Shown here: piece after piece, positions 34,413 to 53,287 of the stretch
Position numbering within the stretch: the first letter of the stretch is position 1
How the letters are laid out: each line of letters starts with the position of its first letter
DNA from: Escherichia coli
GTDB taxonomy: Bacteria > Pseudomonadota > Gammaproteobacteria > Enterobacterales > Enterobacteriaceae
Reading direction: 5' to 3' (one strand)
Length of the DNA: 64,000 bases
Assembly: GCF_024502345.1 (NCBI RefSeq)
Contig: NZ_JALDNN010000003.1
Position numbers and translations under genes: made by a program
The notes under the pieces: generated by a model
The model's input: the letters and a program-made list of their open reading frames with translations, nothing else
What the model was told of the DNA's origin: nothing
Database searches by the model: none

Positions 34413-35485
34413 TTTTCACCTGTTGCTAATGCGGGGGTATTTTGGCGGACTGCCGCACCCGATGAGGCTCGTTCAACCATGCTTTGCAGATAGTGCAGCG
34501 TGGCGTCAGGGACCAGGGATGCGATAGCCGTGAGATCTTTTTTAACCAGCAGCTTGCGCACCCAGGAGGCGGAAATCGGCATCTCCTGGAAGCACAGCCG
34601 CTCAATTTCCACCAGTTCAATCGGTGGGGCGGGAAGCGTTGGGGTCTCCAGCCAGTAGCGCATATCGTTGTTGTACTGGGAGGTGACGGAGCAATACGGC
34701 TCGGTACCGACGAAACGATGTGTAACGCCGAGAGCCGGTGCCAGGTACTGGCGGAAGATTTTCAGGTCTATTTCGGTGTAGCAGTGGTTAATAACGCTCT
34801 GCTCTTTGATGAAGTAGCACGGGAACGTGGCGCGGGAAATGATGTATTCCGAACCGCGATGCACGGTTAAACGTGGAATATCTTTTGTCCCTTTAAGCAC
34901 CAGATCCAACCGGTCTTCATACGGAAACCGTGAGGTATCCTCTTTGACCAAAAACAGATGCAGCCAGTCACATTGTGCGGCCGCCTGTTGGATCAGAAAA
35001 CGATGTCCGTTGGTGAAGGGGTTGGCGTTCATGACGATGCAACCAATTTTTTTCCCTTCACGACGCTGTTTTGCCAGAGATTCAGCGTAACGTTTCAGAC
35101 GCGTGGTGCTGTTTTCCATCAGCACCATAATGCCGGGAACGCTGGTCAGCGTAGAAAAGCCACACTGTTTAAACAGCGATTCGTACTCGGTTTTGGTATA
35201 GATGAAGAGGTGCGTACAGTGGCGCTCATAGGCGAGGTTGATTAACTCGGTCGCCAGCGTCAGCGCTAAGCCTTCGCCCCGTACGGATTCGCAGATGGCG
35301 ACACATTTTATAATATTCCCAGCGATACCGCCGCAGGCAATCAGGCGGTCGTCTCGGGTGACGGTGATAAATACTTCGACGGTGGTGTCAACGCTCAAAT
35401 CATTCTCTTTCAGAAATTGCGTGATAGCCGCCATCTTTTTATTTTCTGAGCGTTTAACTTGCGTGAATATATTATTACCGAACAT
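34409..35485 (-). CDS. citC: [Citrate (pro-3S)-lyase] ligase
   Basis: 358 aa, N-terminal acetyltransferase-like and C-terminal nucleotidyltransferase-like regions ([16 protein letters not shown]). Confidence 0.85.
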
Positions 35486-35875
35486 AGTGAATAGAGCCCC
35501 GATGCTATATTTGTTACTGGGTTTCTGTTTTTGTTGCTCTGCTTAGCAACCTGATAACGTTTTGTTTGCAATTGAAGGGAATGGTTTTTTATTACGGAGT
35601 ATTTCTTTTTTTCCCTGCTGCATACATCGTAAGGGGTATTTTGGAGGTAATTTTTGATTTATTTCACAATAAGTTAGAAGGTTTTAATGTGTTTTATGGT
35701 TTTAAGTTTTTTAATTAATTTAACCTCGAAATAGCGTGTGGTTTTAATTTGTTTAATTGATTTAAAGTGGGGAATCTGCAACGATCTTGTTTTATACACG
35801 TAACGTGTAAATAAAACATTTCTATTACAACTACAATGAGAAATAAGTTTCGGGCAACGTGGATGAGGAAGATAT
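35486..35875. promoter_or_regulatory. Divergent AT-rich control region between citC and citA
   Basis: 390-bp AT-rich spacer between divergent operons; cit operons are controlled from this region in enterobacteria. Confidence 0.45.
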
Positions 35876-37537
35876 ATGGCTGAGCAGAAAAATAAAACAC
35901 GGTTTCCTTTTTTCCGCAGCCTGGCGTTTCCTTTACGCATCTTTCTGCTTATTTTGGTCGTTTCTGTTTTTATCATCGCCGCCCTGGCACAATACTTTAC
36001 CGCCAGCTTTGAAGATTATCTGGCCGCGCATGTCCGCGATATGGCAATGAACCAGGCCAAAATCATCGCCTCTAACGACAGTATCATCACGGCAGTTAAA
36101 CATCGTGATTACAAGCGTTTGGCGACGATTGCCGACAAACTGCAGAGCGGAACTGACTTCGACTATGTGGTTATCGGGGATACCAACTCCATTCGTCTAT
36201 ATCATCCGAACCCGGAAAAGATTGGCTACCCGATGCAGTTCACCAAACCCGGTGCGCTGGAAAAAGGGGAAAGCTACTTTATTACCGGTAAAGGGTCCAT
36301 CGGGATGGCAATGCGCGCTAAAACGCCCATCTTTGATGACGATGGCAAAATCATTGGCGTAGTCTCAATTGGTTATCTGATCAGCAAAATCGATAGCTGG
36401 CGATCGGATTTCTTACTCCCGATGGCCGGTGTGTTTATCTTGCTGTTGTTGGTTCTTATGCTGCTATCCTGGTTTTTCGCTGCCCATATTCGTCGGCAGA
36501 TGTTGGGTATGGAACCGAAACAAATTGCGCGGGTGGTACGTCAGCAGGAAGCGTTGTTCAGCTCGGTATATGAAGGATTGATTGCCGTGGATCCTGATGG
36601 ATATATCACCGCAATAAACCGCAGTGCGAGGAAAATGCTGGGGCTGTCTTCACCAGGGCGAAAGTGGCTTGGAAAACCGGTGAGTGAGGTGGTTCAGCCA
36701 GCGGACTTTTTCACCCAACAGATTGCGGAAAAACGACAGGATGCGATGGTAAACTTTAATGGCCTGAGCGTTATCGCCAACCGTGAAGCGATTCGCTCTG
36801 GTGACGAACTGCTTGGGGCAATCATCAGTTTTCGTAGTAAAGATGAAATTGCTACCCTTAATGCGCAATTAACGCAGATCAAACAGTATGTAGAGAGCCT
36901 GAGAACGCTGCGTCATGAGCACCTGAACTGGATGTCGACCATCAATGGCCTGCTGCAAATGAAAGAATATGACAAGGTTCTGGCCATGGTGCAGGGAGAA
37001 TCCCAGGCGCAACAGCAACTGATTGACAGCCTGCGTGGCGCGTTTGCCGATCGTCAGGTCGCCGGTCTGTTGTTTGGCAAGGTTCAGCGCGCACGGGAAC
37101 TGGGCCTCACCATGACTATCGTTCCGGGGAGCCAACTGCATCAACTCCCCGAGGGGCTGGATAGCACAGAGTTTGCAGCAATTGTTGGCAATCTGCTTGA
37201 TAATGCATTTGAAGCGAGCTTACGCACCCAGCAAGGCAACAAGGTCGTAGAGCTCTATTTGAGCGATGAAGGGGATGACGTGATCATCGAAGTTGCCGAT
37301 CAGGGATGCGGTGTGCCGGAAGCATTGCGTGAGAAAATATTTGAACAGGGTGTGAGCACCCGTACCGATGAACCAGGTGAACATGGCATCGGTTTGTATC
37401 TGATTGCAAGTTATGTGAGGCGCTGTGACGGGGTGATTACGCTCGAAGATAACTCCCCTTGCGGTACCTTATTTTCTTTATTTCTTCCGAAAGTGAAAAA
37501 AAATAATGACGGAACCATTAACGCTGTTGATCGTTGA
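35876..37537 (+). CDS. citA: Citrate-sensing sensor histidine kinase
   Basis: Two TM helices flanking a periplasmic sensing domain, PAS, HisKA and ATPase (GIGLYL) regions. Confidence 0.9.
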   Translation: MAEQKNKTRFPFFRSLAFPLRIFLLILVVSVFIIAALAQYFTASFEDYLAAHVRDMAMNQAKIIASNDSIITAVKHRDYKRLATIADKLQSGTDFDYVVIGDTNSIRLYHPNPEKIGYPMQFTKPGALEKGESYFITGKGSIGMAMRAKTPIFDDDGKIIGVVSIGYLISKIDSWRSDFLLPMAGVFILLLLVLMLLSWFFAAHIRRQMLGMEPKQIARVVRQQEALFSSVYEGLIAVDPDGYITAINRSARKMLGLSSPGRKWLGKPVSEVVQPADFFTQQIAEKRQDAMVNFNGLSVIANREAIRSGDELLGAIISFRSKDEIATLNAQLTQIKQYVESLRTLRHEHLNWMSTINGLLQMKEYDKVLAMVQGESQAQQQLIDSLRGAFADRQVAGLLFGKVQRARELGLTMTIVPGSQLHQLPEGLDSTEFAAIVGNLLDNAFEASLRTQQGNKVVELYLSDEGDDVIIEVADQGCGVPEALREKIFEQGVSTRTDEPGEHGIGLYLIASYVRRCDGVITLEDNSPCGTLFSLFLPKVKKNNDGTINAVDR

Positions 37538-38186
37538 GGATGAAACGCTACTGGCGGAAATGCATGCTGAATATATCCGCCATATACCCGGTTTCAGCCA
37601 GATATGGCTGGCGGGTAATCTTGAGCAGGCGAGGATGATGATTGAGCGTTTTAAGCCCGGTCTGATACTGCTCGATAACTACTTGCCGGACGGCAAGGGA
37701 ATTACGTTGCTGCATGAGCTGACCCAGGCGCGCTATCCGGGCGGCGTAGTGTTTACCACGGCGGCCAGCGATATGGAAACGGTCTCCGAGGCTGTGCGCA
37801 GCGGTGCGTTTGATTACCTGGTCAAACCCATTGCCTACGAGCGGCTGGGGCAGACCCTGACGCGTTATCAACAACGTCGACGCATGTTGGCGGGGAATGA
37901 CAGCGCCAGCCAAAAGCAGATTGATGAAATGTTTAATGCCTACGCGCGGGGCGAACCGAAAGGGGATTTACCGACTGGGATTGATGCGTTAACACTAAAT
38001 GCAGTGTTGAAATTATTCGCCGACCCGACGGTACACCATACTGCGGAAACGATCGCCCAGGCGCTTACCATCAGCCGAACGACTTCCAGACGCTACCTGG
38101 AGTACTGTGCCAGCCGTCATTTGATTATTGCGGAGATTATTCACGGTAAGGTAGGCAGGCCGCAGCGTATTTATCATGGCGGCTAA
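37506..38186 (+). CDS. citB: Response regulator of the CitA/DpiB two-component system
   Basis: Start overlaps the citA 3' end; MTEPLTLLIVEDETLLAEMHAEYIRHIPGF... Confidence 0.9.
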   Translation: MTEPLTLLIVEDETLLAEMHAEYIRHIPGFSQIWLAGNLEQARMMIERFKPGLILLDNYLPDGKGITLLHELTQARYPGGVVFTTAASDMETVSEAVRSGAFDYLVKPIAYERLGQTLTRYQQRRRMLAGNDSASQKQIDEMFNAYARGEPKGDLPTGIDALTLNAVLKLFADPTVHHTAETIAQALTISRTTSRRYLEYCASRHLIIAEIIHGKVGRPQRIYHGG

Positions 38187-38200
38187 ATGCTGATTTCTGA

Positions 38201-38290
38201 CGTAGGCCGGATAAGATGTTTTAGCATCGACATCCGGCAACGGTGCGGTTTAAATGCCGGATGCGGCGTAGATGCCTAATCCGGCCTACA
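38201..38290. repeat. REP/BIME-type enterobacterial extragenic palindromes
   Basis: GTAGGCCGGATAAG...CATCCGGC and GCCGGATGCGGCGTAGATGCCTAATCCGGCCTAC match the REP consensus. Confidence 0.7.
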
Positions 38291-38302
38291 TTTCACTGAG
38301 TA

Positions 38303-39044
38303 TCAGCCGCCAACGACGGCTGAAGAAGAACCTGGTACCATCACTTCAGTTGCGATAATCACAACCAACAGCCCAACCAGAACCGGAACCGAGGTACGTT
38401 TCACCACTTCGAACGGAGAAATCTTTGCCATACCTGCGACAGCGACAACCACGCCGGAGACCGGGGAGATTGTGCGCCCAAGGTTTGACGCCTGCAGCAT
38501 CGGGATAACAAGGTAAGCCGGGTTAATGCCGGAAGAATGCGCCAGCTTAGGGATCATTTCAACGAAGGCGTAGAACGGGGCGTTACCGGAACCCGTAGTC
38601 ATTGCCGCCAGCATAGTCAGGATCACCAGCACCATCATCAAGATAATGCTCGCTGAACCAAACGAGGTGGCGATAGAAATCAGACTCTGAATAAAGCCGA
38701 TTGTGCTCAGACCCTGGGCAAAAACACCCGCAGCGACTAACAACATCACCACGTTAGCAAAGGCATCCGCCATGCCACGGTAAGCGACTTCCAGACCAGA
38801 GAAAACCTTTTGGGTGTTGAACCCACGTACGAACTCCAGAATAGCCGCGATGAGCATGCACAGAACCAGAATCGTAATGATGTGCAACTGCGGGCCCCAT
38901 TTACCATCAAAAATCAGGACGCCAACGATCGGGGTAAACGGCAGAATGGCGTAAAATGACGGGGCAGTCGTGGTGATTTCAGCCACATCTAACATTTCAT
39001 GAGAAATGTTCTCTTTTTTATCCAGAAAACGCTGCCAGAAAAAG
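38303..39044 (-). pseudogene. dcuC: Anaerobic C4-dicarboxylate transporter DcuC, C-terminal about 245 codons, 5' end removed by IS26
   Basis: Translation matches the C-terminal half of DcuC and runs into the IS26 left repeat at 39045. Confidence 0.8.
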
Positions 39045-39832
39045 GGCACTGTTGCAAATAGTCGGTGGTGATAAACTTATCATCCCCTTTTGCTGATGGA
39101 GCTGCACATGAACCCATTCAAAGGCCGGCATTTTCAGCGTGACATCATTCTGTGGGCCGTACGCTGGTACTGCAAATACGGCATCAGTTACCGTGAGCTG
39201 CAGGAGATGCTGGCTGAACGCGGAGTGAATGTCGATCACTCCACGATTTACCGCTGGGTTCAGCGTTATGCGCCTGAAATGGAAAAACGGCTGCGCTGGT
39301 ACTGGCGTAACCCTTCCGATCTTTGCCCGTGGCACATGGATGAAACCTACGTGAAGGTCAATGGCCGCTGGGCGTATCTGTACCGGGCCGTCGACAGCCG
39401 GGGCCGCACTGTCGATTTTTATCTCTCCTCCCGTCGTAACAGCAAAGCTGCATACCGGTTTCTGGGTAAAATCCTCAACAACGTGAAGAAGTGGCAGATC
39501 CCGCGATTCATCAACACGGATAAAGCGCCCGCCTATGGTCGCGCGCTTGCTCTGCTCAAACGCGAAGGCCGGTGCCCGTCTGACGTTGAACACCGACAGA
39601 TTAAGTACCGGAACAACGTGATTGAATGCGATCATGGCAAACTGAAACGGATAATCGGCGCCACGCTGGGATTTAAATCCATGAAGACGGCTTACGCCAC
39701 CATCAAAGGTATTGAGGTGATGCGTGCATTACGCAAAGGCCAGGCCTCAGCATTTTATTATGGTGATCCCCTGGGCGAAATGCGCCTGGTAAGCAGAGTT
39801 TTTGAAATGTAAGGCCTTTGAATAAGACAAAA
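39045..39832 (+). mobile_element. IS26, copy 3, positions 1-788 (interrupted by an IS66-family insertion)
   Basis: Left repeat at 39045; sequence matches copies 1 and 2 up to ...AGACAAAA and then switches to GTAAGCGT... Confidence 0.9.
39108..39812 (+). CDS. tnpA: IS26 transposase Tnp26 (intact)
   Basis: Same translation as the other copies. Confidence 0.95.
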   Translation: MNPFKGRHFQRDIILWAVRWYCKYGISYRELQEMLAERGVNVDHSTIYRWVQRYAPEMEKRLRWYWRNPSDLCPWHMDETYVKVNGRWAYLYRAVDSRGRTVDFYLSSRRNSKAAYRFLGKILNNVKKWQIPRFINTDKAPAYGRALALLKREGRCPSDVEHRQIKYRNNVIECDHGKLKRIIGATLGFKSMKTAYATIKGIEVMRALRKGQASAFYYGDPLGEMRLVSRVFEM

Positions 39833-39862
39833 GTAAGCGTTAAGTGAGCGCCGTATTGACGG

Positions 39863-41455
39863 CTATTTATTGGTGAGATCTACGTTCCATGGCAGCAGTT
39901 CGGCCACTTTGTTGATGGGCCACTCCGGCAATACGCTCAGGATATGGCGAAGGTAACCCTCTGGATCGATACCGTTCAGCCTGCACGTTCCGATCAGACC
40001 ATACAGCAGGGCACCACGTTCACCACCATGATCACTGCCGAAGAAGATGTAGTTTTTCTTGCCCAGACAGACCGCTCGTAGCGCGCGCTCAGCAGCGTTA
40101 TTATCCGGCTCTGCCAGACCATCATCGCAGTAGTAACACAGGGCATCCCACTGGTTCAGTGCATAAGCGAACGCCTCGCCTAACCGGGATTTTTTCGACA
40201 GAGTGGCTCTTTTCTCCACCAACCAGTCATGCAGGGATATCAGCAACGGTTTACTTCGGGACCGTCTGGCGGCCAGCCGCTGAGATGCCGGAAGGCCGCG
40301 TATTTCCTCTTCTATCGCGTATAACTCACTGATGCGCTTCAGAGCCTCCTCTGCTGTGGCCGTCCGGGTGCTGATATAGACGTCATGGATTTTGCGCCGC
40401 GCATGAGCCCAGCATGCCGCTTCTGTCAACGGGCCACCTTCACGCTCTGCGCTGAACAACCTGTCGTACCCTGCGAAGGCATCTGCCTGCAGCACGCCAT
40501 GATAGTGCCGAAGATGTTGCTGAGGGTGTTTCCCCTGTCGGTCCGGTGAGAAGGCGAACCATGCCGCTGGCGGATCTGATGAACCCGCGCTTCTGTTATC
40601 ACGGACATATGTCCAGATACGCCCGGTTTTCGTCTTCTTTCTGCCCGGCGCCAGCACGGGCACCGGAGTGTCATCCGTATGCAGTTTGCGGCAGTCCATC
40701 ACGTAGTGGTAGAGGGCTTCATCCAGCGGGGCCATTAACCGGCAGCACGCATCCACCCAGTTGGAGAGCAGCGCACGACTCAGATCCACACCCTGACGGG
40801 CAAAGATTTCGCACTGGCGATACAGCGGCAGGTGTTCACAGTATTTGGCCGTTAACACGCGGGCCAGCAGACCCGGCCCGGCGATGCCCCGGTCGATAGG
40901 ACGTGAGGGCGCTGGCGCTTCAACGACGCAGTCGCATCGGGTACAGGCCTTTTTCACTCTGACCGTGCGGATCACTTTCAGGGCGCTGGAGACCAGCTCC
41001 AGTTGCTCCGCGCTGACTTCGCTGAGATAGGCCATATCACTACCGCAACCAGGACAGCTGGTTTCAGCTGGCTCCAGTCTGTTTATTTCGCGGGGAAGAT
41101 GTTCCGGTAACGGGCGACGATGACGGGACTGGCGCAACTGACGCGGAACCTGCTGATCATTGTCCCGGCCGTTGTAACGATCGCTTTGCTGCTCCTGCTG
41201 TTTCAGCAGGGCTTCGGCTTCTTCGACCTGCCGGCGTAGCTTTTCTGAACGGGTACCGAACAGCATTCGGCGCAGTTTTTCTATCTGAGCCCGCAGATAT
41301 TCTATTTCACGCTCTTCGTTCTCTATTTTCTCTTCTGCGCGGGCCAGCGCCGAACGCAGGAACGACTCAGTCTCAGCAACGAGACTGAGCTGGCTGTCTT
41401 TCTGGCGAAGCGCGTCTTCCAGCGCAGCGATACGGGCGAGATAGTCCTGACTCAT
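39863..41455 (-). CDS. tnpC: IS66-family transposase TnpC
   Basis: 530 aa with N-terminal coiled coil, zinc-finger region and DDE core. Confidence 0.85.
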   Translation of the reverse strand: MSQDYLARIAALEDALRQKDSQLSLVAETESFLRSALARAEEKIENEEREIEYLRAQIEKLRRMLFGTRSEKLRRQVEEAEALLKQQEQQSDRYNGRDNDQQVPRQLRQSRHRRPLPEHLPREINRLEPAETSCPGCGSDMAYLSEVSAEQLELVSSALKVIRTVRVKKACTRCDCVVEAPAPSRPIDRGIAGPGLLARVLTAKYCEHLPLYRQCEIFARQGVDLSRALLSNWVDACCRLMAPLDEALYHYVMDCRKLHTDDTPVPVLAPGRKKTKTGRIWTYVRDNRSAGSSDPPAAWFAFSPDRQGKHPQQHLRHYHGVLQADAFAGYDRLFSAEREGGPLTEAACWAHARRKIHDVYISTRTATAEEALKRISELYAIEEEIRGLPASQRLAARRSRSKPLLISLHDWLVEKRATLSKKSRLGEAFAYALNQWDALCYYCDDGLAEPDNNAAERALRAVCLGKKNYIFFGSDHGGERGALLYGLIGTCRLNGIDPEGYLRHILSVLPEWPINKVAELLPWNVDLTNK

Positions 41456-41485
41456 GACCCCATTTATAATGCGGTCATGCGCTTT

Positions 41486-41836
41486 TTACAACATCGTCAG
41501 TGAGTTAAGGCGTGCAGTTTTAGGTTGCCGCCAGTCCAGCTTATCGAGGAGCATGGCGAGTTGTGAGCGGGTGATGGCGATTTTGCCGTCGCGTACAGCA
41601 GGCCAGACGAACTGTCCCTCTTCCAGACGTTTGGTAAACAGACACAGACCGTCAGCATCAGCCCAGAGGATCCTCACGGTGTCACCTTTACGACCACGGA
41701 AGATAAACAGGTGGCCGGAGAACGGATTGTCATCAAGAACATGCTGGACCAGTTCGCCCAGACCATTGAAGGACTTACGCATATCGGTGACCCCGGCAAC
41801 CAGCCAGATACGAGTGCCTGACGGTAAGGGTATCAT
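41486..41836 (-). CDS. tnpB: IS66-family accessory protein TnpB (orfB)
   Basis: MIPLPSGTRIWLVAGVTDMRKSFNGLGELVQHVL...; ATGA overlap with orfA. Confidence 0.8.
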   Translation of the reverse strand: MIPLPSGTRIWLVAGVTDMRKSFNGLGELVQHVLDDNPFSGHLFIFRGRKGDTVRILWADADGLCLFTKRLEEGQFVWPAVRDGKIAITRSQLAMLLDKLDWRQPKTARLNSLTML

Positions 41837-42240
41837 CGGCTCCTCCCGGTCAGCTCGCGGATCAGCGTTTTCAGAAGTGCAGGTGATAAATCCCCGGACA
41901 GACGCAGGCTGGCACCGCCGACAGTCACCTCGCATGTCATGGCCTCGCGGCAGGCTGGAGCGGCGGGTTCATAGTGCGGCTCAGCATGGTGTGACAGGGC
42001 CATATCAGGCAGGACAACGGGGATAACAGAGTCTTGCTCTCTGATTGACCGTTGTATTTCATCGGGCAGAAGATGTCTGTAACGCTGGCGCCAGGTAAAC
42101 AGCAGATTGTCATTAATTCCATTATCCCGCGCCAACCGGGCAACACAGGCTCCAGGCTGATATGACTTTTCGACGAGAGCCAGCTTAAAGTCCATTGAGT
42201 AGGACGCCCGCGCCCTGCGGGGCTGAAGAGTGTTTGACAT
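41833..42240 (-). CDS. IS66-family accessory protein TnpA (orfA)
   Basis: 135 aa, HTH-containing N-terminus. Confidence 0.75.
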   Translation of the reverse strand: MSNTLQPRRARASYSMDFKLALVEKSYQPGACVARLARDNGINDNLLFTWRQRYRHLLPDEIQRSIREQDSVIPVVLPDMALSHHAEPHYEPAAPACREAMTCEVTVGGASLRLSGDLSPALLKTLIRELTGRSR

Positions 42241-42334
42241 TGATAGAGTCCATTAACGTTAATAAGAGGACTCTATCATCGTCAATCGTTAGTAATCGCA
42301 ACAGGCGGCAGTGGCTTGACGCTTACAGACAAAA

Positions 42335-42366
42335 GGCTGCCTCATCGCTAACTTTGCAACAGTGCC
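42335..42366 (+). mobile_element. IS26 copy 3, terminal 32 bp including the right inverted repeat
   Basis: GGCTGCCTCATCGCTAACTTTGCAACAGTGCC resumes the IS26 sequence after the duplicated AGACAAAA. Confidence 0.9.
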
Positions 42367-44834
42367 GTCGCTGACATCGTGCAACGACACAGAGCTAACG
42401 CTTAGGGTGTCATTTCGCCCTCAGCCGGAACCGACCCCAAGGACAGCGACTCTCAGTGATGGAGCACCTAAAAAGAGGCCCTGTCACTATCAGCGGCCCC
42501 GCATTCACTGAAGCACTTGAACGTTACACTCGCCTGCGCAGCCTGGAATTTTCCTGCCTGAATTTCACTGGGCTGCCTGCCATACAGCTCCGCAACCTGG
42601 CACGCTATGCCGGAATGGCATCGGTGAAATATATCAGCAGAATGCCAGAAGAACGGCGGCTGGCTATCCTTACCGCGTTCGTGAAAGCGCAAGAAATCTC
42701 GGCGCTGGACGAGGCCGTTGACGTGCTGGATATGCTGATCCTCAATATTACCAGGGAGGCGAAGAAAACCGGGCAGAAAAAGCGACTTAGGACGCTCAAG
42801 GATCTTGACCGTGCGGCGTTGTTGCTGGCGCGGGCATGTGCACTTTTACTTGATGAAGATACTGGTGATGATTTGCTGCGAAAGACCATATTCAGCAGTG
42901 TACCTGTCGCCAGACTGGCAGAGTCAGTGGAAAAAGTGAATGAACTGGCCCGCCCCCAGGATACAAACTTTCAGGATGAAATGGTGGAGCAGTACGGACG
43001 GGTAAGGCGTTTTTTGCCCGCACTACTGCGCGATCTGCACTTCCGGGCGGCCCCAGACGGTGAACATACCCTCGCGGCCATCCATTACCTGGCAGAGCTA
43101 AACGGCTCGAAAAAACGGATCCTGGACGATGCACCTGAGCATATCATTTCAGGCCCTTGGAAACGCCTGGTGTACGATGCTGAAGGTCGGATACAGCGAG
43201 CGGGTTACTCGTTGTGTCTGCTGGAGCGACTTCAGGATGCGCTACGCCGTCGTGACATCTGGTTGGAAAACAGCGATCGTTGGGGTGATCCGCGCCAAAA
43301 ACTTCTTCAGGGGGAGGAATGGCAGGCGCAGCGGGTTCCAGTGTGCCGGGCATTGGGTCACCCCACCAATGGCAGTAAAGCATCGGTGCAATTGGCAGCA
43401 CGGTTGGATGAAACCTGGAAAACGGTGGCATCACGTTTTGACCGCAATACCGCCGTAGACATCTGCAATGAAGGTAAACATCCTTCGCTGACCATCAGCA
43501 GCCTGGATAAATTGGATGAGCCACCGGCGCTGATACGACTGAGCAGCCGAGTCAGACAATTGCTCCCACCCGTTGACCTGACAGAACTGTTGCTTGAGAT
43601 TGACGCCAGAACGGGTTTCACCCGTGAATTCAGCCATGTCAGCGAGTCAGGTGCCCGCGCGCAGGATCTGCATATAAGCCTGTGTGCGGTGATGCTGGCT
43701 GAGGCCTGCAATATCGGACATGAGCCGCTGATCAAGCACAATATCCCTGCACTGACCCGCCATCGCCTGAGCTGGGTGAAACAGAACTACATCCGAGCAG
43801 AAACGCTGGTCAGCGCCAATGCGCGGCTGGTTGATTTTCAGTCCTCGTTAGCGTTGGCAGGATACTGGGGTGGCGGTGAGGTGGCCTCCGCTGATGGTAT
43901 GCGTTTTGTCACACCAGTGAAAACGGTGAATTCTGGCCCCAACAGAAAATACTTTGGTTCAGGGCGCGGCATTACCTGGTACAACTTTGTCTCTGACCAA
44001 TATTCGGGTTTTCATGGCATAGTGATCCCTGGAACGCTGCGGGATTCCATTTTTGTGCTGGAGGGACTACTTGAGCAACAAACGGGACTAAACCCGGTTG
44101 AAATCATGACGGACACAGCAGGTACCAGTGACATTATCTTTGGCTTGTTCTGGCTACTGGGATACCAATTTTCACCTCGTCTGGCGGATGCTGGTGAGGC
44201 GGTGTTCTGGCGGGCTGACAAAGCAGCGAATTACGGGGCGTTGGACGAACTGGCTCGGGGTTGTGTTGACCTTTCTAAAATCGAAAGCCACTGGGATGAG
44301 ATGATGCGGGTTGCAGGTTCGCTGAAGCTGGGCACAATTCATGCGTCAGAACTCATTCGATCGCTATTGAGAAGTACCCGACCGTCAGGGCTTGCTCAGG
44401 CAATAATGGAGGTCGGAAGAGTTAACAAGACACTGTATCTTCTCAACTATATTGATGATGAGGACTATCGCCGCAGGATCCTAACACAGCTTAACCGGGG
44501 CGAAGGTCGCCATGCCGTGGCAAGAGCCATTTGCTACGGTCAGCGTGGTGAGATCAGAAAACGTTACCGCGAGGGGCAGGAAGATCAGTTGGGTGCGCTG
44601 GGTCTGGTGACAAACGCAGTGGTGCTGTGGAATACGCTTTATATGCAGGAAGCCTTGTCGCACCTGCGTAGCACTGGGGAAGGGCCAGAAGATGAACATA
44701 TCGCGCGGCTTTCGCCTCTGATGCATGGTCATATCAACATGCTGGGACATTATACGTTCACACTACCGGAGGATATTATGAAGGGGGAATTGAGGCCGTT
44801 AAATCTCAATTTAAACAATGAATTACCTCCTTAG
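42367..44834 (+). pseudogene. tnpA: Tn3-family transposase TnpA, lacking roughly the first 200 codons (truncated at IS26)
   Basis: Translation aligns with Tn3-family TnpA from about residue 210 to the C-terminus (...LGALGLVTNAVVLWNTLYMQEAL...MLGHYTFTLPE...); in-frame stop 30 bp from the IS26 boundary. Confidence 0.8.
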
Positions 44835-44867
44835 CGTGGTTTTTTACATCATTGGCCCTCAAACCCC
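44830..44867. repeat. Tn3-family 38-bp terminal inverted repeat (tnpA-proximal end)
   Basis: Reverse complement GGGGTTTGAGGGCCAATGATGTAAAAAACCACGCTAAG has the GGGG...ACGCTAAG signature; tnpA stop codon lies inside it. Confidence 0.8.
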
Positions 44868-45056
44868 TTATATGCGTTCTTAACGTTTGCTGCCCACTGT
44901 TCAATGCGGAGCATCATTGCATATGTTGCTGCGGCATCAAGATCCAGTTGTTCAGAGTGTTCAGGGAGCAGAATTTTACAATATTCCAGTCATGAGCCAC
45001 AGCTCCGAGCCGTTCATAAAGTGTAGATAGTTGCGTTATGGAATCATCAGTGCGGT

Positions 45057-45725
45057 TCATGAATAGCGCCGACTTCCAATAATATATTGAGCAAGTTTGA
45101 TGTTAAGACATACCATGTTGCTTGATAGTTGGCGCATCATACGGGATTCGCTACGAATTAAATAGGATTCAAGTAGTCCAGAATATTCCCCTGACGTTAC
45201 AACCGTCAACTGGGCAATGTGATTATTTAATTTGCTTACCCCTGCCAGGATATCATCCTCCGTCGCCTCGATATAAACGGGGGAGGCAGCGATAACATAA
45301 TCATCGAAAGGTCTTGCTGCCATCAATGTCTCAATAGATTTCGCCGTCCTTTCTTTCCCGAATGTATTTGTTAATTCCCGCCACCATTGTCGGTGACTGA
45401 ACGGTAAATCATGAAAGGTGGCTTCATAAGCGTCCACGAGGTCACGACTATTCAAAAAACCCAACCCGGCCGAGATCACCCACAACTCCAGGTTCTCAGT
45501 TGTCCGTAATATCTCTTTTGCCGTTGACCAGTGATTACCGGCATAGAGCGACAGGGCCGGTACCGGTGAAGCACTTTGCGACCGTTTAATCGTTGCTGCC
45601 CAGCTGGACATTGCCTCTTCTGGTGTCTGTCCAGACCGGATACTCAGTTCTGGCATGGAGCCGCACTGGCTGTGCTTACCTTTGGTACAGGACGTTATTA
45701 GGTGTGTAATTCGCGACGCCGCCAT
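45057..45725 (-). CDS. hypothetical protein (222 aa)
   Basis: ATG with GAGGG RBS; no motif recognised. Confidence 0.45.
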   Translation of the reverse strand: MAASRITHLITSCTKGKHSQCGSMPELSIRSGQTPEEAMSSWAATIKRSQSASPVPALSLYAGNHWSTAKEILRTTENLELWVISAGLGFLNSRDLVDAYEATFHDLPFSHRQWWRELTNTFGKERTAKSIETLMAARPFDDYVIAASPVYIEATEDDILAGVSKLNNHIAQLTVVTSGEYSGLLESYLIRSESRMMRQLSSNMVCLNIKLAQYIIGSRRYS

Positions 45726-45933
45726 TTTGTAGCCCTCAGCCAAATGTGTGTAATCACTGTCTAACTATCGTAACAGCCCCTCATCCGCCATAACGACAAA
45801 GAGGAAGCCCTAAACGTAAACGACTACCCCATTATACATTTAGTCATGCCTTTACTAATAACTAGATACCAAAGTAAACACCCCAGAGGTGACACCGTCA
45901 CGTTTTTCGGCTTTATTTAGTTCATTTTATGTA

Positions 45934-45965
45934 CTATGGGATTTAATTATGGGTAAATCCCATAG
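45934..45965. promoter_or_regulatory. Palindromic candidate operator in a 420-bp divergent intergenic region
   Basis: CTATGGGATTT-n10-AAATCCCATAG perfect 11-bp inverted repeat. Confidence 0.3.
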
Positions 45966-46233
45966 ATTTACACCTCTACTCAAAAGAGCCTAATAGAAAC
46001 TAAATCCTTATATATCAATAACTTGAATTCGCCATCACGCACCCATAGAGAGCACCCGTCTTTTGTCGGGCCGTAGGGTTGTTGGCCCCATAGTAACTGC
46101 ATGCTAATCTCTTTCATGCTTAGTCACTAGTAAAGGCTTTACTAATTGCGATGCTACGTGAATATTATTGACGGAGGAGGGGGTTGGGGCAGTGAAAATC
46201 TCTCAGCCAAAACAGTGGGAAAAGGATCGTGAA

Positions 46234-47046
46234 ATGAGCATGAATTATCAGCCGGAACTGAAGTTGAGTACCCGCACCGAACAACTCGCCAGTAGTCGTG
46301 ATGCCGCTATGCAAAAATTTCTGGACGGTATTATGCTGATTGCCGAAGCCTCAGCTATTTGCGGGTTTTCACTATTTAACAGCAAAATTATGGCCCCTAA
46401 TGCTTTTGGCCTTCCTGCGTCCCTGGCCGCAAGCATCGAGGAAGGGCGACAGCAAATAGACCGTAAGACATGGAACAATCTTTTTGAAGAAACGGGTATT
46501 GACCGATTCTGGAATCACAACCAGCGAGCGGAGTTCAGTGAGTCTCTCCGGTCCGCTCCGCCAATTGCGTCGTTAACCGTAATCCGTAGCACATTGCGCC
46601 AGGCAGTGGCCATTCGGAGCATCACGCTTGCTCAAGGGTTTGTTGATCTGCTATGCCAGCTTGATCGCCGGTATAAAACTAATGCCCAGCAATTTGTGAT
46701 GCCAAAAAAACTGGTACTACGTGGCATTTTTCCCGACTCGAACATGATGAGATATAACGGCTTTTCTCAGGATAATCTCTTCTATTTGAACGACTTTGAG
46801 AATATCGTTTGCATCTGCTCCAACGCAGCGACACCTCCTGTCGGCAGTGGATTGAATATGTACGACCGGCTTGCTGCCTTAAGGAAAACCGATTTTACTG
46901 GTGACATTACCGACCCGAAGGGCTGGAAGTGCCGATTGTTCGTAAATGGTAATGTCCATATTTCAGTTGAGTGTGAAAGCCTGCATAACACACTGAATGA
47001 CCTGATTAGCATTTATTTTGCCAACCAGATCCCGGCCAAAGGATAA
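46234..47046 (+). CDS. hypothetical protein (about 270 aa; alternative upstream starts to 46168)
   Basis: AAAGGA RBS 8 nt before ATG; stop 2 nt before the next gene start. Confidence 0.45.
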   Translation: MSMNYQPELKLSTRTEQLASSRDAAMQKFLDGIMLIAEASAICGFSLFNSKIMAPNAFGLPASLAASIEEGRQQIDRKTWNNLFEETGIDRFWNHNQRAEFSESLRSAPPIASLTVIRSTLRQAVAIRSITLAQGFVDLLCQLDRRYKTNAQQFVMPKKLVLRGIFPDSNMMRYNGFSQDNLFYLNDFENIVCICSNAATPPVGSGLNMYDRLAALRKTDFTGDITDPKGWKCRLFVNGNVHISVECESLHNTLNDLISIYFANQIPAKG

Positions 47047-47048
47047 GA

Positions 47049-48269
47049 ATGATGACTGACAATGAAAATTTGATGAACGGGGATGAACAGACAGCGTCCA
47101 ATTTAAGTGAAGAGACAACAAAAAAGCGCCCTCTCAGCCCCGAACTACTGAAGAATTCTCCTTATTCATCAATAGCTAAGGTTAAATATTTCACCGAAAT
47201 TGAACAAATCTGCCTCGATAAGGGCATCAGCACCGAAAACCTCGATCAGTTTTTCAAAGCCCACTGGCTGCGGGATAAAATGGGGGGGTCTTTTGCCCGC
47301 GCTCAGGAGATGCTGGCTGCCTACAAGCAATACGTGGACGAGGTGCCCGAGGAAGCGCGTGCGATTGAAATCCCTGACCAGATTAAAGAAGCATTTAGTG
47401 ATTTTACTGCGTTTATCATCTGGTACTTCCGCTTAAGCTATACGGCTATCCAGAGTGATAGCGTGAAAATTGCGAAGGCAGAAATTACTCAGTTAAGACA
47501 TCGGAATGCTGAAATTCTGGAAGAACTGTCACAGTCGAAAGAACAGGTTACAGTACTGAATAACGAAAAAGTTAACCTGATTAACCAGCTGGAACAACAG
47601 CGTGAACTCGCCAGTAAATTGGGGGATTCACTTCGGGAAGCAGAAGAAGCGCTGGCTACAACCCAAAGTGAATTACAGCATGCCCAAAACGAGATTCAGC
47701 TTATACAGCAGACAGTAGGGACACTGAACCAACAACTGAGTGAGCGCAAGCAGGAACTGGCCTCCCAGCAGGAGTACCAGAAGCAACTGAATGATGAGAA
47801 TAAAGAGCAGCAGGTAGAGCTGACAGCCCTCAAAAGCCAGAATGAACACTTACAACGGACCGTATCTGATTTAAAGGTCAGTGTCAGTCAGCTTGAACAG
47901 GACCTTTCCTCAGCACAAACCCATTCCTCTGAATTGAGCTCATCTTTAGCCGAAAAGGACACGGCCCTGACGCTCGTGCGGTCGGAGCTGTCAACAGCTA
48001 AAGGGGAGAATGAACAACTTCGAGCTGAAGCACAACGCTTAGGTGATGAGAGCCTGCTTGCCAAAAAGGTGCAAACAGCTCAGACAGAAGAACTTCGGAA
48101 GCTCCAGAATCAGATGATATCCATGGAAGCGACACTCAATGCGGAAAAGACCATTTCAGAGTCTTTACGAGGAACAATCAAGCAGCTTACCGAAGCTATG
48201 ACCGGCGCAGTTGCCATCAAACCTAAATCCTCTGGGGCATCAAAACCGCGAAACAAAAAGACGACATAA
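47049..48269 (+). CDS. Coiled-coil protein with KfrA-like N-terminal putative DNA-binding region
   Basis: N-terminal about 100 aa then about 250 aa of Q/E/L-rich heptad-like sequence (...LREAEEALATTQSELQHAQNEIQLIQQTVGTLNQQLSERKQELASQQ...). Confidence 0.4.
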   Translation: MMTDNENLMNGDEQTASNLSEETTKKRPLSPELLKNSPYSSIAKVKYFTEIEQICLDKGISTENLDQFFKAHWLRDKMGGSFARAQEMLAAYKQYVDEVPEEARAIEIPDQIKEAFSDFTAFIIWYFRLSYTAIQSDSVKIAKAEITQLRHRNAEILEELSQSKEQVTVLNNEKVNLINQLEQQRELASKLGDSLREAEEALATTQSELQHAQNEIQLIQQTVGTLNQQLSERKQELASQQEYQKQLNDENKEQQVELTALKSQNEHLQRTVSDLKVSVSQLEQDLSSAQTHSSELSSSLAEKDTALTLVRSELSTAKGENEQLRAEAQRLGDESLLAKKVQTAQTEELRKLQNQMISMEATLNAEKTISESLRGTIKQLTEAMTGAVAIKPKSSGASKPRNKKTT

Positions 48270-48540
48270 CTGCTCCCGCCAGGAATTTGCAATAGACTTA
48301 AATTCCTGGCGTCCACAGGCTCTTTATCCCGTTCGCAGGAGTTTACGTCCTTCCGACAGCATTAGGCTGATTTTCCCCGAATCACTGATCTCAATAGCAT
48401 CAACCAGGCTAGTGATCCCGCCAACAGCTTGCTGTTGTGAAATAGCTCCCAGTTTGTAGTCATCGAGTACTGCCGCCAAAAACGCCTTCAGTTTAACCTG
48501 CTCACTCATCGAAAGTATGTACGCCATTTTTAGCCCCATT

Positions 48541-49860
48541 TTAAGGTTGTGATTCGGGTGAATTGTATCGTCTAGCTTCCGGGAAATGAGGGAGTTCCTG
48601 GTATTCAGTCTTCTCCGTAGCATCCCAGTGCCACCATCCATAGGCCCCATATTCCTGGTTGTAATACGCCTTCTTAAGTTCCTTTCGCGCAAGATAGGCA
48701 GGTGTCGACATCCCGAAAACTTCCATCGGGAACGGCTTATCACTTCGTGTATCCAGTAAATAAAAATCTGGGAAAACATCGCTCACACTGGCGTCATACC
48801 GCATAGGCTTAACATAGTGCCGGTGTTCGGCATCAAGTTTACGGGACACTATCGCTTCGTAGGAGGAGTCCAGAGGTATCCAGTTATCACTCACCAGCAT
48901 AAGCACTATCTGATGAGCTCGTGCAGAGATACCTCTACTGGTCACCGATACGGGAGATGTAAGAGCAAAAACAACAACTTTGCCCCCATTTTTCCAGGCG
49001 GCATATTCCAGAGGGAATCGCCGCTTCACGCTATCCCAGTGCCCGTCTGAGTTAAAGAAGGTAAGGGGCATACCGCCGAAGTTACGCATAGGTAGAAACT
49101 TCAGCGGCTTCTCATGCTTTTCTGCGTCATAGCGCGGCAGTACTGATAGCAGCAGCAGTCGTTTGTCGCTCAGTTCCGCCGACGACAGCAGTTGAACCTG
49201 CTCACTGGCCACTTTGCTTTTAGAGTCCGCCACCCCGATAAAAAGATGGTCGCCAATACATGCTCTACCCGATCTAATCTGCTTTGCGGCTTCCAACATC
49301 CGGTATCGAACCAGCGAATCATTTCGCTTCCCGGCCATATTCGGATACCAGACATTAAGACCGGCTTCAGTCCACAACAGACTCAGAAGTCCGGACAGGG
49401 TCATTGAAGCCTGGCCACCTTCAGGTCGCTGGATTTGGGGCAGGGAAGGAACCTCAGACTTTTCCGGCGGATCTTTCTCCGTCATGCCTATTCCAAGGCG
49501 GATTGACATGGTCCCCTCATTGTTGATGCGTACAACATTGCTGGCATAACCCTTTAACCCTGTATGCCTGGCATCAAGGTCGAAAAACACACACGATGGA
49601 TCATGCTCAGTGCCGGTATTTGCAGCCTTAATCAGGATGAACGTATCACTGTTTGGTAGTGAGCGGACGTAGAGACGCTTTGCGCCTTTTCCCCGACATC
49701 CGCAGCTGATCACAGATTTCTGCCCGGACGTGTGGTGTGCTTTCTTCAGGGCCGACTGCCATCCCTTTACATACTCATCCTGTGTCTGAAATTCAGCCGA
49801 GTATCGTTTCGTGTTTGGTTCGTCATCGTAAGCAATAAAAACTGCAAACTTCTGGCCCAT
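48541..49860 (-). CDS. hypothetical protein (439 aa), last gene of the Dcm-like methyltransferase operon
   Basis: AGGAGG RBS; Cys/His cluster near the N-terminus (SCGCRGKG...HDPSC) and a possible D-x9-D-x-K segment (IGDHLFIGVADSKSK). Confidence 0.5.
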   Translation of the reverse strand: MGQKFAVFIAYDDEPNTKRYSAEFQTQDEYVKGWQSALKKAHHTSGQKSVISCGCRGKGAKRLYVRSLPNSDTFILIKAANTGTEHDPSCVFFDLDARHTGLKGYASNVVRINNEGTMSIRLGIGMTEKDPPEKSEVPSLPQIQRPEGGQASMTLSGLLSLLWTEAGLNVWYPNMAGKRNDSLVRYRMLEAAKQIRSGRACIGDHLFIGVADSKSKVASEQVQLLSSAELSDKRLLLLSVLPRYDAEKHEKPLKFLPMRNFGGMPLTFFNSDGHWDSVKRRFPLEYAAWKNGGKVVVFALTSPVSVTSRGISARAHQIVLMLVSDNWIPLDSSYEAIVSRKLDAEHRHYVKPMRYDASVSDVFPDFYLLDTRSDKPFPMEVFGMSTPAYLARKELKKAYYNQEYGAYGWWHWDATEKTEYQELPHFPEARRYNSPESQP

Positions 49861-49884
49861 GGGACCTCCTGAAATTTAAAAATA

Positions 49885-50052
49885 CTAATAGCCTAGCCAT
49901 ATCAATACTTCTTGCGCGTTGTACTCTTCCCTCTCACCCAACTCGGAAAAAAATACGTCTATGTCGCTGGCTACGACGCAATGTTTTGCAAGCTCTTGCA
50001 GAGCTCTCTGTTTTGAAATGGTGAGGTCTTCTGCTGAATCAAAATACGTCAT
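49885..50052 (-). CDS. small hypothetical protein (55 aa) between the methyltransferase and the 439-aa gene
   Basis: Not in the supplied ORF track (under 60 aa); GGAGG RBS 5 nt upstream of ATG; translation MTYFDSAEDLTISKQRALQELAKHCVVASDIDVFFSELGEREEYNAQEVLIWLGY. Confidence 0.35.
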   Translation of the reverse strand: MTYFDSAEDLTISKQRALQELAKHCVVASDIDVFFSELGEREEYNAQEVLIWLGY

Positions 50053-50183
50053 CATTACCTCCTGATGAAGGAGTTGACTGAAGCAGGCCTTTCTCTCCCT
50101 GCCCAGGTTTTTTTCTGTGCAAAAGTTACAATATTAGTGAAATAAACCATTACGTTAACCTGCAAAATCACACAGAAGAATTA

Positions 50184-51611
50184 CTATGATGCCGCTTCAA
50201 ATTCTCCCTTGAGACGAGCCGCAACGGCGATCTCAATACGGCTTCGAAGCAAACTGGCCACGGCCGCAAATACGTCGACGATGACCGAATTGCCGAACTG
50301 GCGATAGGCCTGGGTATCAGAGACTGGAATGCGAAAAGTAACTTTTCCCGGTTGCTCGAATCCCATAAGGCGGGCACATTCTCGCGGGGTTAAACGGCGC
50401 GGGCGCCTTGCCATATTTACAGGATCATTAAAGTCCTTTTCGCCTATGCTGTGATCCCATCCACGGTCTAGCAAAATTTCAGAGCCATCACGATAGTACC
50501 GTGCGCTGAGTGTTCTGCAAACAACTGATTTATCAAGTGGATTTACCAGTCCGAAGCCAAATCCATTACCTTTTGCCTGGTGCTTTTTAGCGTAGTTATA
50601 AAGGTACTCCCAGAGCTTTGGAGAAAGGATGTAACGGCTATCGACCTCAGCGTCCAGCAGCTCCCCAAGGGTTGGCCGTCGTGAAGGATAAAGAGCCGAT
50701 ACACCACTTAACGAAAAGCCATCATGGAGCTTCAGATCGCGCCTGAATCCAACCAACACGATACGTTCCCGGTGCTGAGGCCTGAAGTTCTTACCGTCAA
50801 TTATTTTGGGGTCCTTTGATCCGTGAGCATCGCAGTCGGCAACATCGTAGCCAAGTTCATCAAGCGCTTTCATGATGATGCGGAACGTATTTCCCTTATC
50901 GTGGCTCTTCAGATTTTTTACGTTCTCAAGAACGAAAATGGCAGGCTGTTTGGCTCGGATGATCCGGGCGACATCAAAAAAAAGGGTCCCCTGGGTGTCG
51001 CATTCAAAGCCGTGTTTTCGGCCCAAAGAGTTCTTTTTGCTGACACCGGCAATACTGAACGGCTGGCATGGGAAACCGGCGAGCAAAACATCATGGTCAG
51101 GAATGGATGCAGCGATAGAAGCATACGCCTGGTCTTCCGACACATCGGGAAGATTGCTGAGTGTAATGTCCCGGATATCTGAGTTGAAATGGTGCTCGGT
51201 GTCTTCGCAGTACCAGTTTGCACTGTATGTCCGGCGGGAGAACTGATTCCATTCGCTTGTAAACACGCATTTCCCGCCAATGGCGTCAAAACCACTCCGG
51301 AGGCCACCGATCCCAGCAAACAAGTCAATAAAACGGAAAAATTTCTGGTCATAGTCTGCTGGGCGTGAGGGGAGCAACGATCGAAGATAATGATATTCTT
51401 CCTGGGTTATTCGACATTCATTAACTGAACCTTTGATCTGGCGAATAAGTGATGCCCTCGACCAGTCGCTGCCGGTTGCAGCATTAAGTTGCGCAGCCAA
51501 ATCTTTTACGTCATAGATACTTGCAACCTGAACCAGTAATTTATGGATAGAGGAATGTGTCTCATCATTTAGCAATGCAGTTATTGCAGGCTCATTTCTC
51601 GCGCTGTACAT
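50184..51611 (-). CDS. dcm: DNA (cytosine-5) methyltransferase, Dcm/M.EcoRII-like
   Basis: Motif [16 protein letters not shown], motif [13 protein letters not shown], motif VI ENVKNL, motif X QFGNSV; full-length collinearity with Dcm (475 aa); GGAG RBS. Confidence 0.9.
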
Positions 51612-51833
51612 CCTTACTCCGTGAAATGTGATTAATTTAGGTTCTCAGACTACCACGCGCAGAAAATTCAATTTTTCTTTAAAGCCCTTTATTTTCATCT
51701 CCTGAAATAAATTTTTTATCCACTTAAATTGCCTCCGTTAACGGAAATTTGCCCGGGTTCTAATTGGTACAATAAGCACTTCTAATCACACGACTAATTT
51801 GTTACTACAAACCATCTAATTCAGGGAGAATGT

Positions 51834-52349
51834 ATGACTCTGTTGAAAAAGTTACTTTTGCCGACATTAATTGTCCTTTTCCCGGCGGCAGTTCTGGCTG
51901 GTCAGTCTTCATTTGAAGCAAAAGTGGTAAAAATTATCGATGGGGACACCATTACCGCGCTCGACGGTCAGAATACAAGCATCAAAATCCGTATGTACGG
52001 TATTGATGCCCCCGAAAGTAAGCAGGCCTTTGGACAAAAGGCTAAACAAGCGTTGAGCTCCGCGATTGCTGCACAGAATATTACGGTAATAGACCACGGA
52101 CCTGATATTTACGGCAGGATGTTGGGGACTATTTGGCTTGATGGTTATGACATCAACGCTTCAATGGTAGACAGTGGTTATGCATGGGTATATCGGTTTG
52201 ACGGTAATCCCATCGTCCCAAACTATCTTAAATTCGAAGCTTCAGCTCAGAAAGCCGTTAAAGGTCTCTGGGTAGATCCTAATCCCGTTGCTCCTTGGGA
52301 GTGGCGCCAGCAAAACCAGAAACCTCAAAAGACGAAAAGCAGGGGGTGA
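51834..52349 (+). CDS. Secreted thermonuclease (staphylococcal-nuclease/SNase fold)
   Basis: Signal peptide MTLLKKLLLPTLIVLFPAAVLAG; SNase-like core (VVKIIDGDTI...IRMYGIDAPE...). Confidence 0.7.
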   Translation: MTLLKKLLLPTLIVLFPAAVLAGQSSFEAKVVKIIDGDTITALDGQNTSIKIRMYGIDAPESKQAFGQKAKQALSSAIAAQNITVIDHGPDIYGRMLGTIWLDGYDINASMVDSGYAWVYRFDGNPIVPNYLKFEASAQKAVKGLWVDPNPVAPWEWRQQNQKPQKTKSRG

Positions 52350-52354
52350 GCGCG

Positions 52355-53287
52355 ATGACAAGCCAGCATCCTTTACTGAAAATTGCACTTAATGGCGATG
52401 GACTTCTTTCGTGGCCAAATTCACCCGGACAGACTATGCGCTGCCCAACGTGTATGCGAGATGTTATTACGGGTCCGGATGGTGATTTAATACATCAAAT
52501 GGAAGAGGGCGCTAACCCCTGCACGCCATCTGTTGATGTTGTCATTTCAAAGGCGATCATTGAACTACTCAGCACGGGTGAGCGCCTCTATGTCAACCCA
52601 GTTAAGAACGCGAATAGAACACTGGCCCCATCGTTTATCTTTCTGCATAAAGACAAGCAACTTCGACCATTCATAAATACGGAATATCAACCAGCAGGTG
52701 CCACCTGGAGAAGTGATAAAGGGAACAGGCTTGGTTTTTTCTATATGGATGCGCGAGCGTCTAAAATTAATAAGGACCAGTTCGATTTTATTGCTGTAAT
52801 AGACCCATCTACTTTTCAAGCAGAATTTAAGACCTTATGGTCCATGTGTGAATTCGATAACCCCCTTGCCGCGTTACAGCACTTATTGGTTTCAGAGAAT
52901 ATGTCTTCAGTCTGGGTGAAATGGCCTGTTAAAAGCCTACAACCGAGGAAAGAAGCAGTGAAGGCCGATTACTGGTATGACTATTATTCACCTCACTACC
53001 CAGCGCAGCAGGCAGCTTGCACAGCAACAGTGATTGGACTGGAAGGAAATGTATCCGGGGAAACTATTTACATGCTCCAGATCGCTGTAGACCGGTCGAT
53101 AGTTGAGTACCAGCTTGTAAAATCGCTAGGGGTTATATTGCTATTGGATAATACGGGAAATTTGGTATCGGAGACGCGCCCACACTTTGATATAATCATC
53201 AAAGCTTGCATCTCGGGTGTCAGAGACTTTGTACGTCAAAATCCTCGAATGCGAAGTGTGGAGCATCAGATTACCAGTGCAATATGA
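52355..53287 (+). CDS. hypothetical protein (310 aa)
   Basis: Starts 6 nt after the nuclease stop; no motif recognised. Confidence 0.45.
   Translation: MTSQHPLLKIALNGDGLLSWPNSPGQTMRCPTCMRDVITGPDGDLIHQMEEGANPCTPSVDVVISKAIIELLSTGERLYVNPVKNANRTLAPSFIFLHKDKQLRPFINTEYQPAGATWRSDKGNRLGFFYMDARASKINKDQFDFIAVIDPSTFQAEFKTLWSMCEFDNPLAALQHLLVSENMSSVWVKWPVKSLQPRKEAVKADYWYDYYSPHYPAQQAACTATVIGLEGNVSGETIYMLQIAVDRSIVEYQLVKSLGVILLLDNTGNLVSETRPHFDIIIKACISGVRDFVRQNPRMRSVEHQITSAI

Follow-up and report, generated by a model that had tools for sequence, protein, structure and literature searches.

The segment at positions 42367-44867 of the Escherichia coli DNA analyzed here (a 64,000-nucleotide stretch of contig NZ_JALDNN010000003.1, hereafter the window) is very probably inert debris, left on the backbone of an IncHI1A resistance plasmid by a succession of three mobile-element events. 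The original prediction, made from the sequence by itself, had described a Tn3-family relic close to IS26 that retained around 80% of tnpA and one terminal repeat, and this description was borne out. It had also treated the segment as one element, which it is not: two relics are stacked there, 72 bp of Tn5403 followed by 2,429 bp of Tn5396. The relic is ordinary and already known, and its tnpA is already annotated as a pseudogene in a near-identical plasmid.

Two stacked transposon stubs beside IS26

The larger stub (42439-44867, + strand) agrees at every position with the distal 2,429 bp of the 7,517-bp copy of Tn5396 in plasmid pEC22 (NC_025058). It consists of a 5'-truncated tnpA (42439-44834, + strand; nucleotides 614-3009, residues about 205-1002), of which 2,396/3,009 nt or 79.6% remain, and of the 38-bp right terminal inverted repeat (44830-44867, - strand; reverse complement GGGGTTTGAGGGCCAATGATGTAAAAAACCACGCTAAG). 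The residual open reading frame (42456-44834, + strand) matched the Pfam family DDE_Tnp_Tn3 (PF01526) with E=2.9e-153. As originally proposed, tnpA ends inside the repeat, with its TAG stop at 44832-44834. The repeat has the GGGG...TAAG form of Tn3-family inverted repeats, a pattern with a chance expectation of zero; it is the sole such copy in the window and agrees at 37/38 positions with the left repeat of intact Tn5396 copies. It is followed by TTATA (44868-44872), the right copy of a 5-bp target-site duplication that is present singly in the empty site of L005. A megablast search of 72,556 plasmids returned 3,781 matching records, 680 of which covered at least 80% of the query. Identity to full-length copies runs at 100% from position 42435, and that to pEC22 is 100% over 42435-44867 and 99.9% when the junction gap is included. 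However, the first four of these positions (42435-42438, CCCC) belong to the Tn5403 repeat and agree with Tn5396 by coincidence; aligning the window with pEC22 placed the start of true homology at 42439, which is nucleotide 614 of tnpA.

Membership of the Tn3 family is evident from several features. The full-length transposase is large (about 1,000 aa), and its residues 25-994 align with the TnpA of Tn4430 (7QD4/7QD8, E=2e-141), D690, D763 and E893 falling on the Tn4430 catalytic triad D679/D751/E881 (PMC9579193). The codons of all three residues are present in the stub (43893-43895, 44112-44114 and 44502-44504, respectively). Terminal repeats of around 38 bp, one of which contains the end of tnpA, are likewise typical, that one alone lying in the window, and 5-bp duplications were found as TATAA in pEC22, GTACC in pEncl-922cz and a duplicated TTATA in sibling plasmids. 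Both tnpR and res occur in intact copies and are absent from the window. Assignment to Tn5396 itself follows from near-identity to the pEC22 copy, the NC_025058 record serving as type sequence. The window thus holds a relic of Tn5396 and no functional member.

Between this stub and IS26 lie 72 bp from the tnpR end of Tn5403 (42367-42438, + strand), identical at 72/72 positions to pC15-1a 3593-3664. The final 39 nt of tnpR (42367-42405, + strand) make up the first part of this stub and overlap its terminal repeat of 38 bp (42401-42438; reverse complement GGGGTCGGTTCCGGCTGAGGGCGAAATGACACCCTAAG). A plasmid search with the tip of the element found 71/71 identical positions in pC15-1a (3593-3663, E=4e-28); in all, 2,808 plasmid records contain these 71 bp. 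Plasmid pC15-1a is annotated with a 'Tn3-like element Tn5403 family transposase' and with tnpR at 3026-3631. Identity over both the terminal repeat and the 3' end of tnpR identifies the stub as Tn5403, described as a cryptic tnpA-tnpR transposon of about 3.66 kb by Rinkel et al. (1994), in so far as that work is cited in PMC5142620. The stub stops exactly at the terminal base of the transposon (...ACCCC). The break in the Tn5396 tnpA, which the original prediction had placed at the IS26 boundary, was therefore made by the Tn5403 repeat at 42438/42439, and it is Tn5403 that IS26 truncated.

The IS26 copy is itself interrupted. Its left 788 bp (39045-39832, + strand) carry the left repeat and the whole tnp26 gene, and its right 40 bp (42327-42366, + strand) include the 14-bp right repeat (42353-42366). 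The two parts make up an 820-bp element bounded by 14-bp repeats (GGCACTGTTGCAAA) at 39045 and 42366, and the sequence is that of IS26 except for the insertion of a 2,494-bp IS66-family element (39833-42326, - strand) with GTAAGCG... termini and RefSeq-annotated tnpA, tnpB and tnpC genes. The latter matches Pfam DDE_Tnp_IS66 at 39863-41455 (E=5.6e-97) and is bracketed by an 8-bp duplication, AGACAAAA (39825-39832 and 42327-42334). Positions 39045-39833 are 99.9% identical to the IS26 of L005, an IS26 transposase is annotated in the near-identical plasmid NZ_LR890350.1, and a motif scan of the 64-kb window located six IS26 ends, with zero expected by chance. No 8-bp target duplication flanks this IS26: the 8 bp on its left (AGAAAAAG) differ from those on its right (GTCGCTGA), which points to a deletion or rearrangement and not to a simple insertion.

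Intact Tn5396, its flanks and the sibling plasmids

Complete copies of Tn5396 (7,517 bp) were found in pEC22 and in plasmids of Citrobacter, Salmonella and Enterobacter, in the order left repeat, DUF87/HerA, SIR2, tnpR, tnpA (1,002 aa), right repeat. They are flanked by 5-bp duplications in pEC22 and in the IncX3 plasmid pEncl-922cz. The Tn3-family transposon of pEC22 was named Tn5396 in two papers that give its layout as left repeat-tnpA-tnpR-orf6-orf7-right repeat and credit it to Elhai, Cai & Wolk (1994) (PMC5052281, PMC5034289); our use of the name rests on the pEC22 record and on these secondary papers. PADLOC identified orf6 as SIR2 (E=4e-155) and orf7 as HerA (E=6.6e-250). The cargo of Tn5396 is thus a SIR2-HerA defence pair, located on the other side of tnpR and without a copy in the window. 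The solved SIR2-HerA (Nezha-type) complexes were considered as possible equivalents of the Tn5396 proteins and set aside, the similarity to 8j4u being only distant (E=2.8e-21 and E=1.5e-32). A literature search for a Tn3-family transposon together with SIR2 and HerA found no paper combining them. Recognition of the long-cryptic orf6 and orf7 as SIR2-HerA would make Tn5396 a widespread defence-carrying transposon.

The DNA to the right of the relic had been proposed to be either former cargo or flank (44868-53380), and of these two options the flank stands and the cargo falls. Positions 44868-53396 are collinear with IncHI1A plasmids that have or do not have the insertion and encode a DUF6884 protein, a DUF4942 protein, a hypothetical protein, a DUF1173 protein, a C5 cytosine DNA methyltransferase, a thermonuclease and a further hypothetical protein (Pfam). 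In pYPE10-190k-tetX4 the site is empty and uninterrupted, reading ...GTTGGTA|TTATATGCG...; it falls within a small ORF that has an hns-like gene on one side and the DUF6884 gene on the other. The right repeat of Tn5396 adjoins rop in pEC22, IS4321 in pAR-0405, higB in pSYM6 and an IncX3 backbone gene in pEncl-922cz, and it meets unrelated DNA in pEC22, IncX3, IncR and pSYM6 plasmids. Wherever it was examined, the repeat at the tnpA end forms the outer limit of Tn5396 and borders on unrelated DNA, precisely the observation that the original prediction had named as fatal to a cargo. Given the collinearity with insertion-free plasmids and the variety of DNA abutting the right repeat, 44868-53396 is, on comparative grounds, IncHI1 backbone flank and not cargo.

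These data also bear on a one-element account of the locus, in which one Tn3-family transposon was cut directly by IS26 and 44868-53380 holds its former passenger genes. The position of IS26 immediately to the left of the relic and the mostly uncharacterized DUF genes downstream would suit it. Against it, however, 72 bp of Tn5403 with its own repeat separate IS26 from Tn5396, the right repeat is an outer end whose flanks vary among pEC22, pAR-0405, pSYM6 and pEncl-922cz, insertion-free plasmids carry the downstream DNA as an unbroken piece of IncHI1 backbone, and the real cargo, SIR2-HerA, lies on the opposite side of tnpR. We give this account next to no credence and retain two nested transposons on a plasmid backbone.

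In the sibling IncHI1A plasmids, Tn5396 is part of a larger unit. Its order is a Tn1000-like repeat, arsR-arsD, a ter cluster in the 35,243-bp version only (the short version measures 13,167 bp), IS903B, a toxin-antitoxin pair of the RelE family (HTH/RelE) and a complete Tn5396. The left backbone of siblings such as CP029729 and CP119492 ends with ...GGTATTATA at the Tn1000-like repeat GGGGTCTGAGGGCCAATGGAACGAAAACGTACGCTAAG. This repeat is identical to the Tn5396 repeat at 29/38 positions. TTATA brackets the whole unit, with one TTATA in the empty site, and the duplication is unmatched at Tn5396's own left repeat in the siblings (TTAGC versus TTATA). The Tn5396 tnpA is the sole Tn3-family transposase inside the unit. 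No record covered at least 80% of a synthetic left-junction query representing Tn5396 inserted by itself between the two backbone flanks. Since the empty site holds a single TTATA, the whole unit seems to have transposed as one piece, and on this comparison we consider the chances about even that the right repeat preserved here belonged to a compound Tn3-family transposon of 13-35 kb, of which it is the last remaining end. If that were so, the Tn5396 TnpA would have used a foreign repeat, matching its own at 29/38 positions, as a surrogate left end, and heavy-metal resistance, a toxin-antitoxin pair and a SIR2-HerA anti-phage system would have moved into the backbone in one step. About 529 plasmid records contain the Tn1000-like repeat with arsRD in full, starting at its first base; the one context inspected, in the mosaic pB12IMP1, did not reveal the parent transposon of this module.

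Order of events

By comparison with the sibling and empty-site plasmids, the earliest event shown is the insertion of a unit ending in Tn5396, which entered the small backbone ORF beside the hns-like gene and duplicated TTATA. The second event shown, from a junction lying exactly at the terminal base of Tn5403, is the transposition of Tn5403 into the Tn5396 tnpA, between nucleotides 613 and 614; a junction placed exactly at a transposon terminus is a signature of transposition. The reciprocal left Tn5403 junction in Tn5396, with its expected duplication AAGGA, is gone from the window. From the absence of an 8-bp IS26 duplication and from the sequences missing in the window, we infer a third step, in which IS26 would have inserted into Tn5403 at a distance of 72 bp from the tnpR end and an IS26-mediated deletion or rearrangement would have removed the rest of Tn5403 and everything further left, including the left 5.1 kb of Tn5396 (HerA, SIR2, tnpR, res and the 5' end of tnpA), joining the spot to a citrate-fermentation segment. 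The IS66-family element also inserted into this IS26 at some stage. The rest of the window contains no left part of Tn5396, no Tn5403 body, no hns flank and no ars or ter DNA of the compound unit; the arsB gene at 56604-57905 is unrelated to the arsRD segment of that unit.

The Tn5403/Tn5396 junction was searched for in 72,556 plasmids and 5,426 E. coli genomes and turned up in a single record, NZ_LR890350.1. This IncHI1A plasmid of E. coli MSB1_9D shares 99.98% identity with window positions 30367-53387, and RefSeq annotates its tnpA as a pseudogene with 'missing N-terminus'. There were no matches in GTDB r220, with one genome per species, and no intermediate with a complete Tn5403 at the junction was found in the plasmid and E. 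coli collections. With the stacked junction in no record but NZ_LR890350.1, no intermediate is available that would confirm the order of events. An alternative is that Tn5396 carrying Tn5403 formed on another replicon and arrived by homologous recombination in Tn5396 or as an IS26 translocatable unit. Tn5396 and Tn5403 abound in plasmids of Enterobacterales (3,781 and 2,808 records, respectively), there are documented cases in which disrupted copies of Tn5403 recombined with each other (PMC5142620), and an IS26 without target duplication is compatible with such an arrival. Yet the junction is present in no other record, and the part to its right is 100% identical to sibling IncHI1A plasmids at the same backbone site. 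As this identity and shared site let an in-situ event take fewer steps, we judge arrival from another replicon improbable, and we favour stepwise insertion and deletion in place. There is precedent in pKPC-e4e, in which Tn5403 inserted and IS26 then deleted most of it (He et al., 2016; PMC5142620).

Residual function and relation to known systems

The relic lacks the DNA-binding N-terminus of the transposase, has no resolvase or res and possesses a single end, and its residual ORF follows in-frame stops and has no promoter-like site before it; from this structure we conclude that it is immobile and in practice non-coding. A truncated TnpA would be without about 204 N-terminal residues, all of which precede the DBD2 recognition helix (Tn4430 residues 261-267) in the alignment. 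DBD1, the N-terminal specificity domain, comes first in order and is the main determinant of repeat recognition (PMC9579193). The missing residues probably include DBD1, its exact boundary being a putative one.

The relic might instead have been kept because it is functional, for example through a truncated TnpA translated from GTG 42456 or ATG 42459 and acting as an inhibitor or immunity factor. A 792-codon frame is indeed open and retains the DDE triad, and the sequence is 100% identical to active copies. Perfect identity, however, is what a recent event would produce and is no sign of selection, DBD1, needed for repeat recognition, is missing, and the configuration is confined to a single plasmid lineage. 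Moreover, the residual tnpA ORF has no promoter-like site ahead of it on the + strand and is preceded by in-frame stops at 42372 and 42396. We regard retention for function as very improbable. An expressed truncated transposase was also considered as the leading reading and was rejected on the lack of an upstream + strand promoter-like site. Judging from what is generally known of the Tn3 family, an inert relic could still participate passively: the 2.4-kb stub could offer other copies of Tn5396 a stretch of homology for recombination, and the lone repeat could bring about target immunity or one-ended transposition, provided that an intact Tn5396 TnpA were supplied in trans.

The biological weight of the relic is limited; resistance plasmids offer other cases in which remnants have been layered by Tn3-family insertion and IS26 deletion. 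Its practical value lies in annotation, the segment being two stacked stubs and the 8.5 kb downstream IncHI1 backbone, and the stub marks a lineage-specific insertion site that is useful for tracing the ancestry of IncHI1A plasmids. Mildly more interesting are two matters outside the window, namely Tn5396 as a vehicle of SIR2-HerA and the possible hybrid-ended compound transposon in the siblings.

Compared with known elements, 32% of Tn5396 (2,429/7,517 bp) survives here, and nothing remains of its left repeat, HerA, SIR2, tnpR and res or of the initial 613 nt of tnpA. Of Tn5403, identical here to the pC15-1a copy at its tnpR end and 38-bp repeat, 72 bp are left, nested in the Tn5396 tnpA. Tn1000 (gamma-delta) is comparable in part: its repeat would share its first 18 bp with that of Tn5396 and differ at positions 19-30, and its TnpA would likewise be about 1,000 aa. 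In contrast to Tn1000, Tn5396 carries SIR2-HerA. The process seen in the window has close parallels in other plasmids. IS26-truncated copies of Tn5403 in pKPC-e4e and pKpQIL-6e6 (PMC5142620) likewise consist of a stub abutting IS26, and p2246-CTXM, pP10164-2 and pKP1814-3 hold Tn5396 remnants beside IS26. Unlike the cases of the pKPC-e4e type, the window has two Tn3-family stubs stacked on each other, an IS26 that carries an IS66-family insertion, and an IncHI1A host.

The insertion unit and its boundaries in related plasmids

In the sibling IncHI1A plasmids NZ_CP029729 (comparison loci L004 and L006) and CP119492 (L008), one TTATA duplication encloses a unit of 13,167 or 35,243 bp, in which a Tn1000-like repeat is followed by arsRD, (the ter cluster), IS903B, a RelE toxin-antitoxin pair and a complete Tn5396. 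The unit has the appearance of a compound Tn3-family transposon with hybrid ends, and its right junction corresponds to window 44867/44868. The insertion interrupts a small ORF of the plasmid backbone; this ORF is annotated as WP_001082182.1 on the minus strand of pYPE10-190k-tetX4, a plasmid with an empty insertion site, and only the 5' part of the ORF is left in the window, at 44868-45061. The Tn1000-like repeat was also found with an arsRDABC module in the IncL/M blaIMP-1 plasmid LC635857.1 (14001-18578), where the two immediately follow a class 1 integron's sul1 3'-conserved segment, and this placement shows that the repeat-bounded ars module has itself been widely redistributed.

Sequences flanking the relic

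The IS26 to the left of the relic (39045-42366) is interrupted by a 2,494-bp IS66-family element carrying tnpA, tnpB and tnpC (39833-42326, minus strand), which is flanked by the 8-bp duplication AGACAAAA. Since the insertion point lies 3' of the tnp26 stop codon, Tnp26 is intact and the right repeat of IS26 has been shifted by 2.5 kb. On its left side this IS26 adjoins a citrate-fermentation cluster (30367-39044; citCDEFXG, dpiAB and a truncated dcuC), whose usual location is the chromosome. Farther right, collinearity with NZ_LR890350.1 is lost at 53387, where that plasmid has an STM4504-family gene interrupted by IS3; the window therefore represents a sibling plasmid rather than exactly the same record. 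Beyond this point lies a SulP-family permease that contains a STAS domain (53782-55260), followed by a universal stress protein (55279-56106) and by arsB (56604-57905).

Defence genes and putative stress-tolerance genes

Thousands of Enterobacterales plasmids contain Tn5396 sequence. PADLOC identified its 'cryptic' orf6/orf7 as a SIR2-HerA anti-phage defence pair (L004 2403-5863; also in comparison loci L002 and L009-L011); the relationship of this pair to the SIR2-HerA complexes of known structure, 8j4u and 8su9, is only distant. The left part of the window begins this series with a TnsE-like protein (529-2151), TnsE being a Tn7-type targeting protein. After it come a ClpB/ClpK-like AAA+ ATPase (4437-7346), then a PLD/cardiolipin-synthase-like protein (7150-8793) and, at 8803-10650, an FtsH-like protease. 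Taken together, this plasmid-borne gene set (529-10650) is similar to the transmissible locus of heat/stress tolerance.
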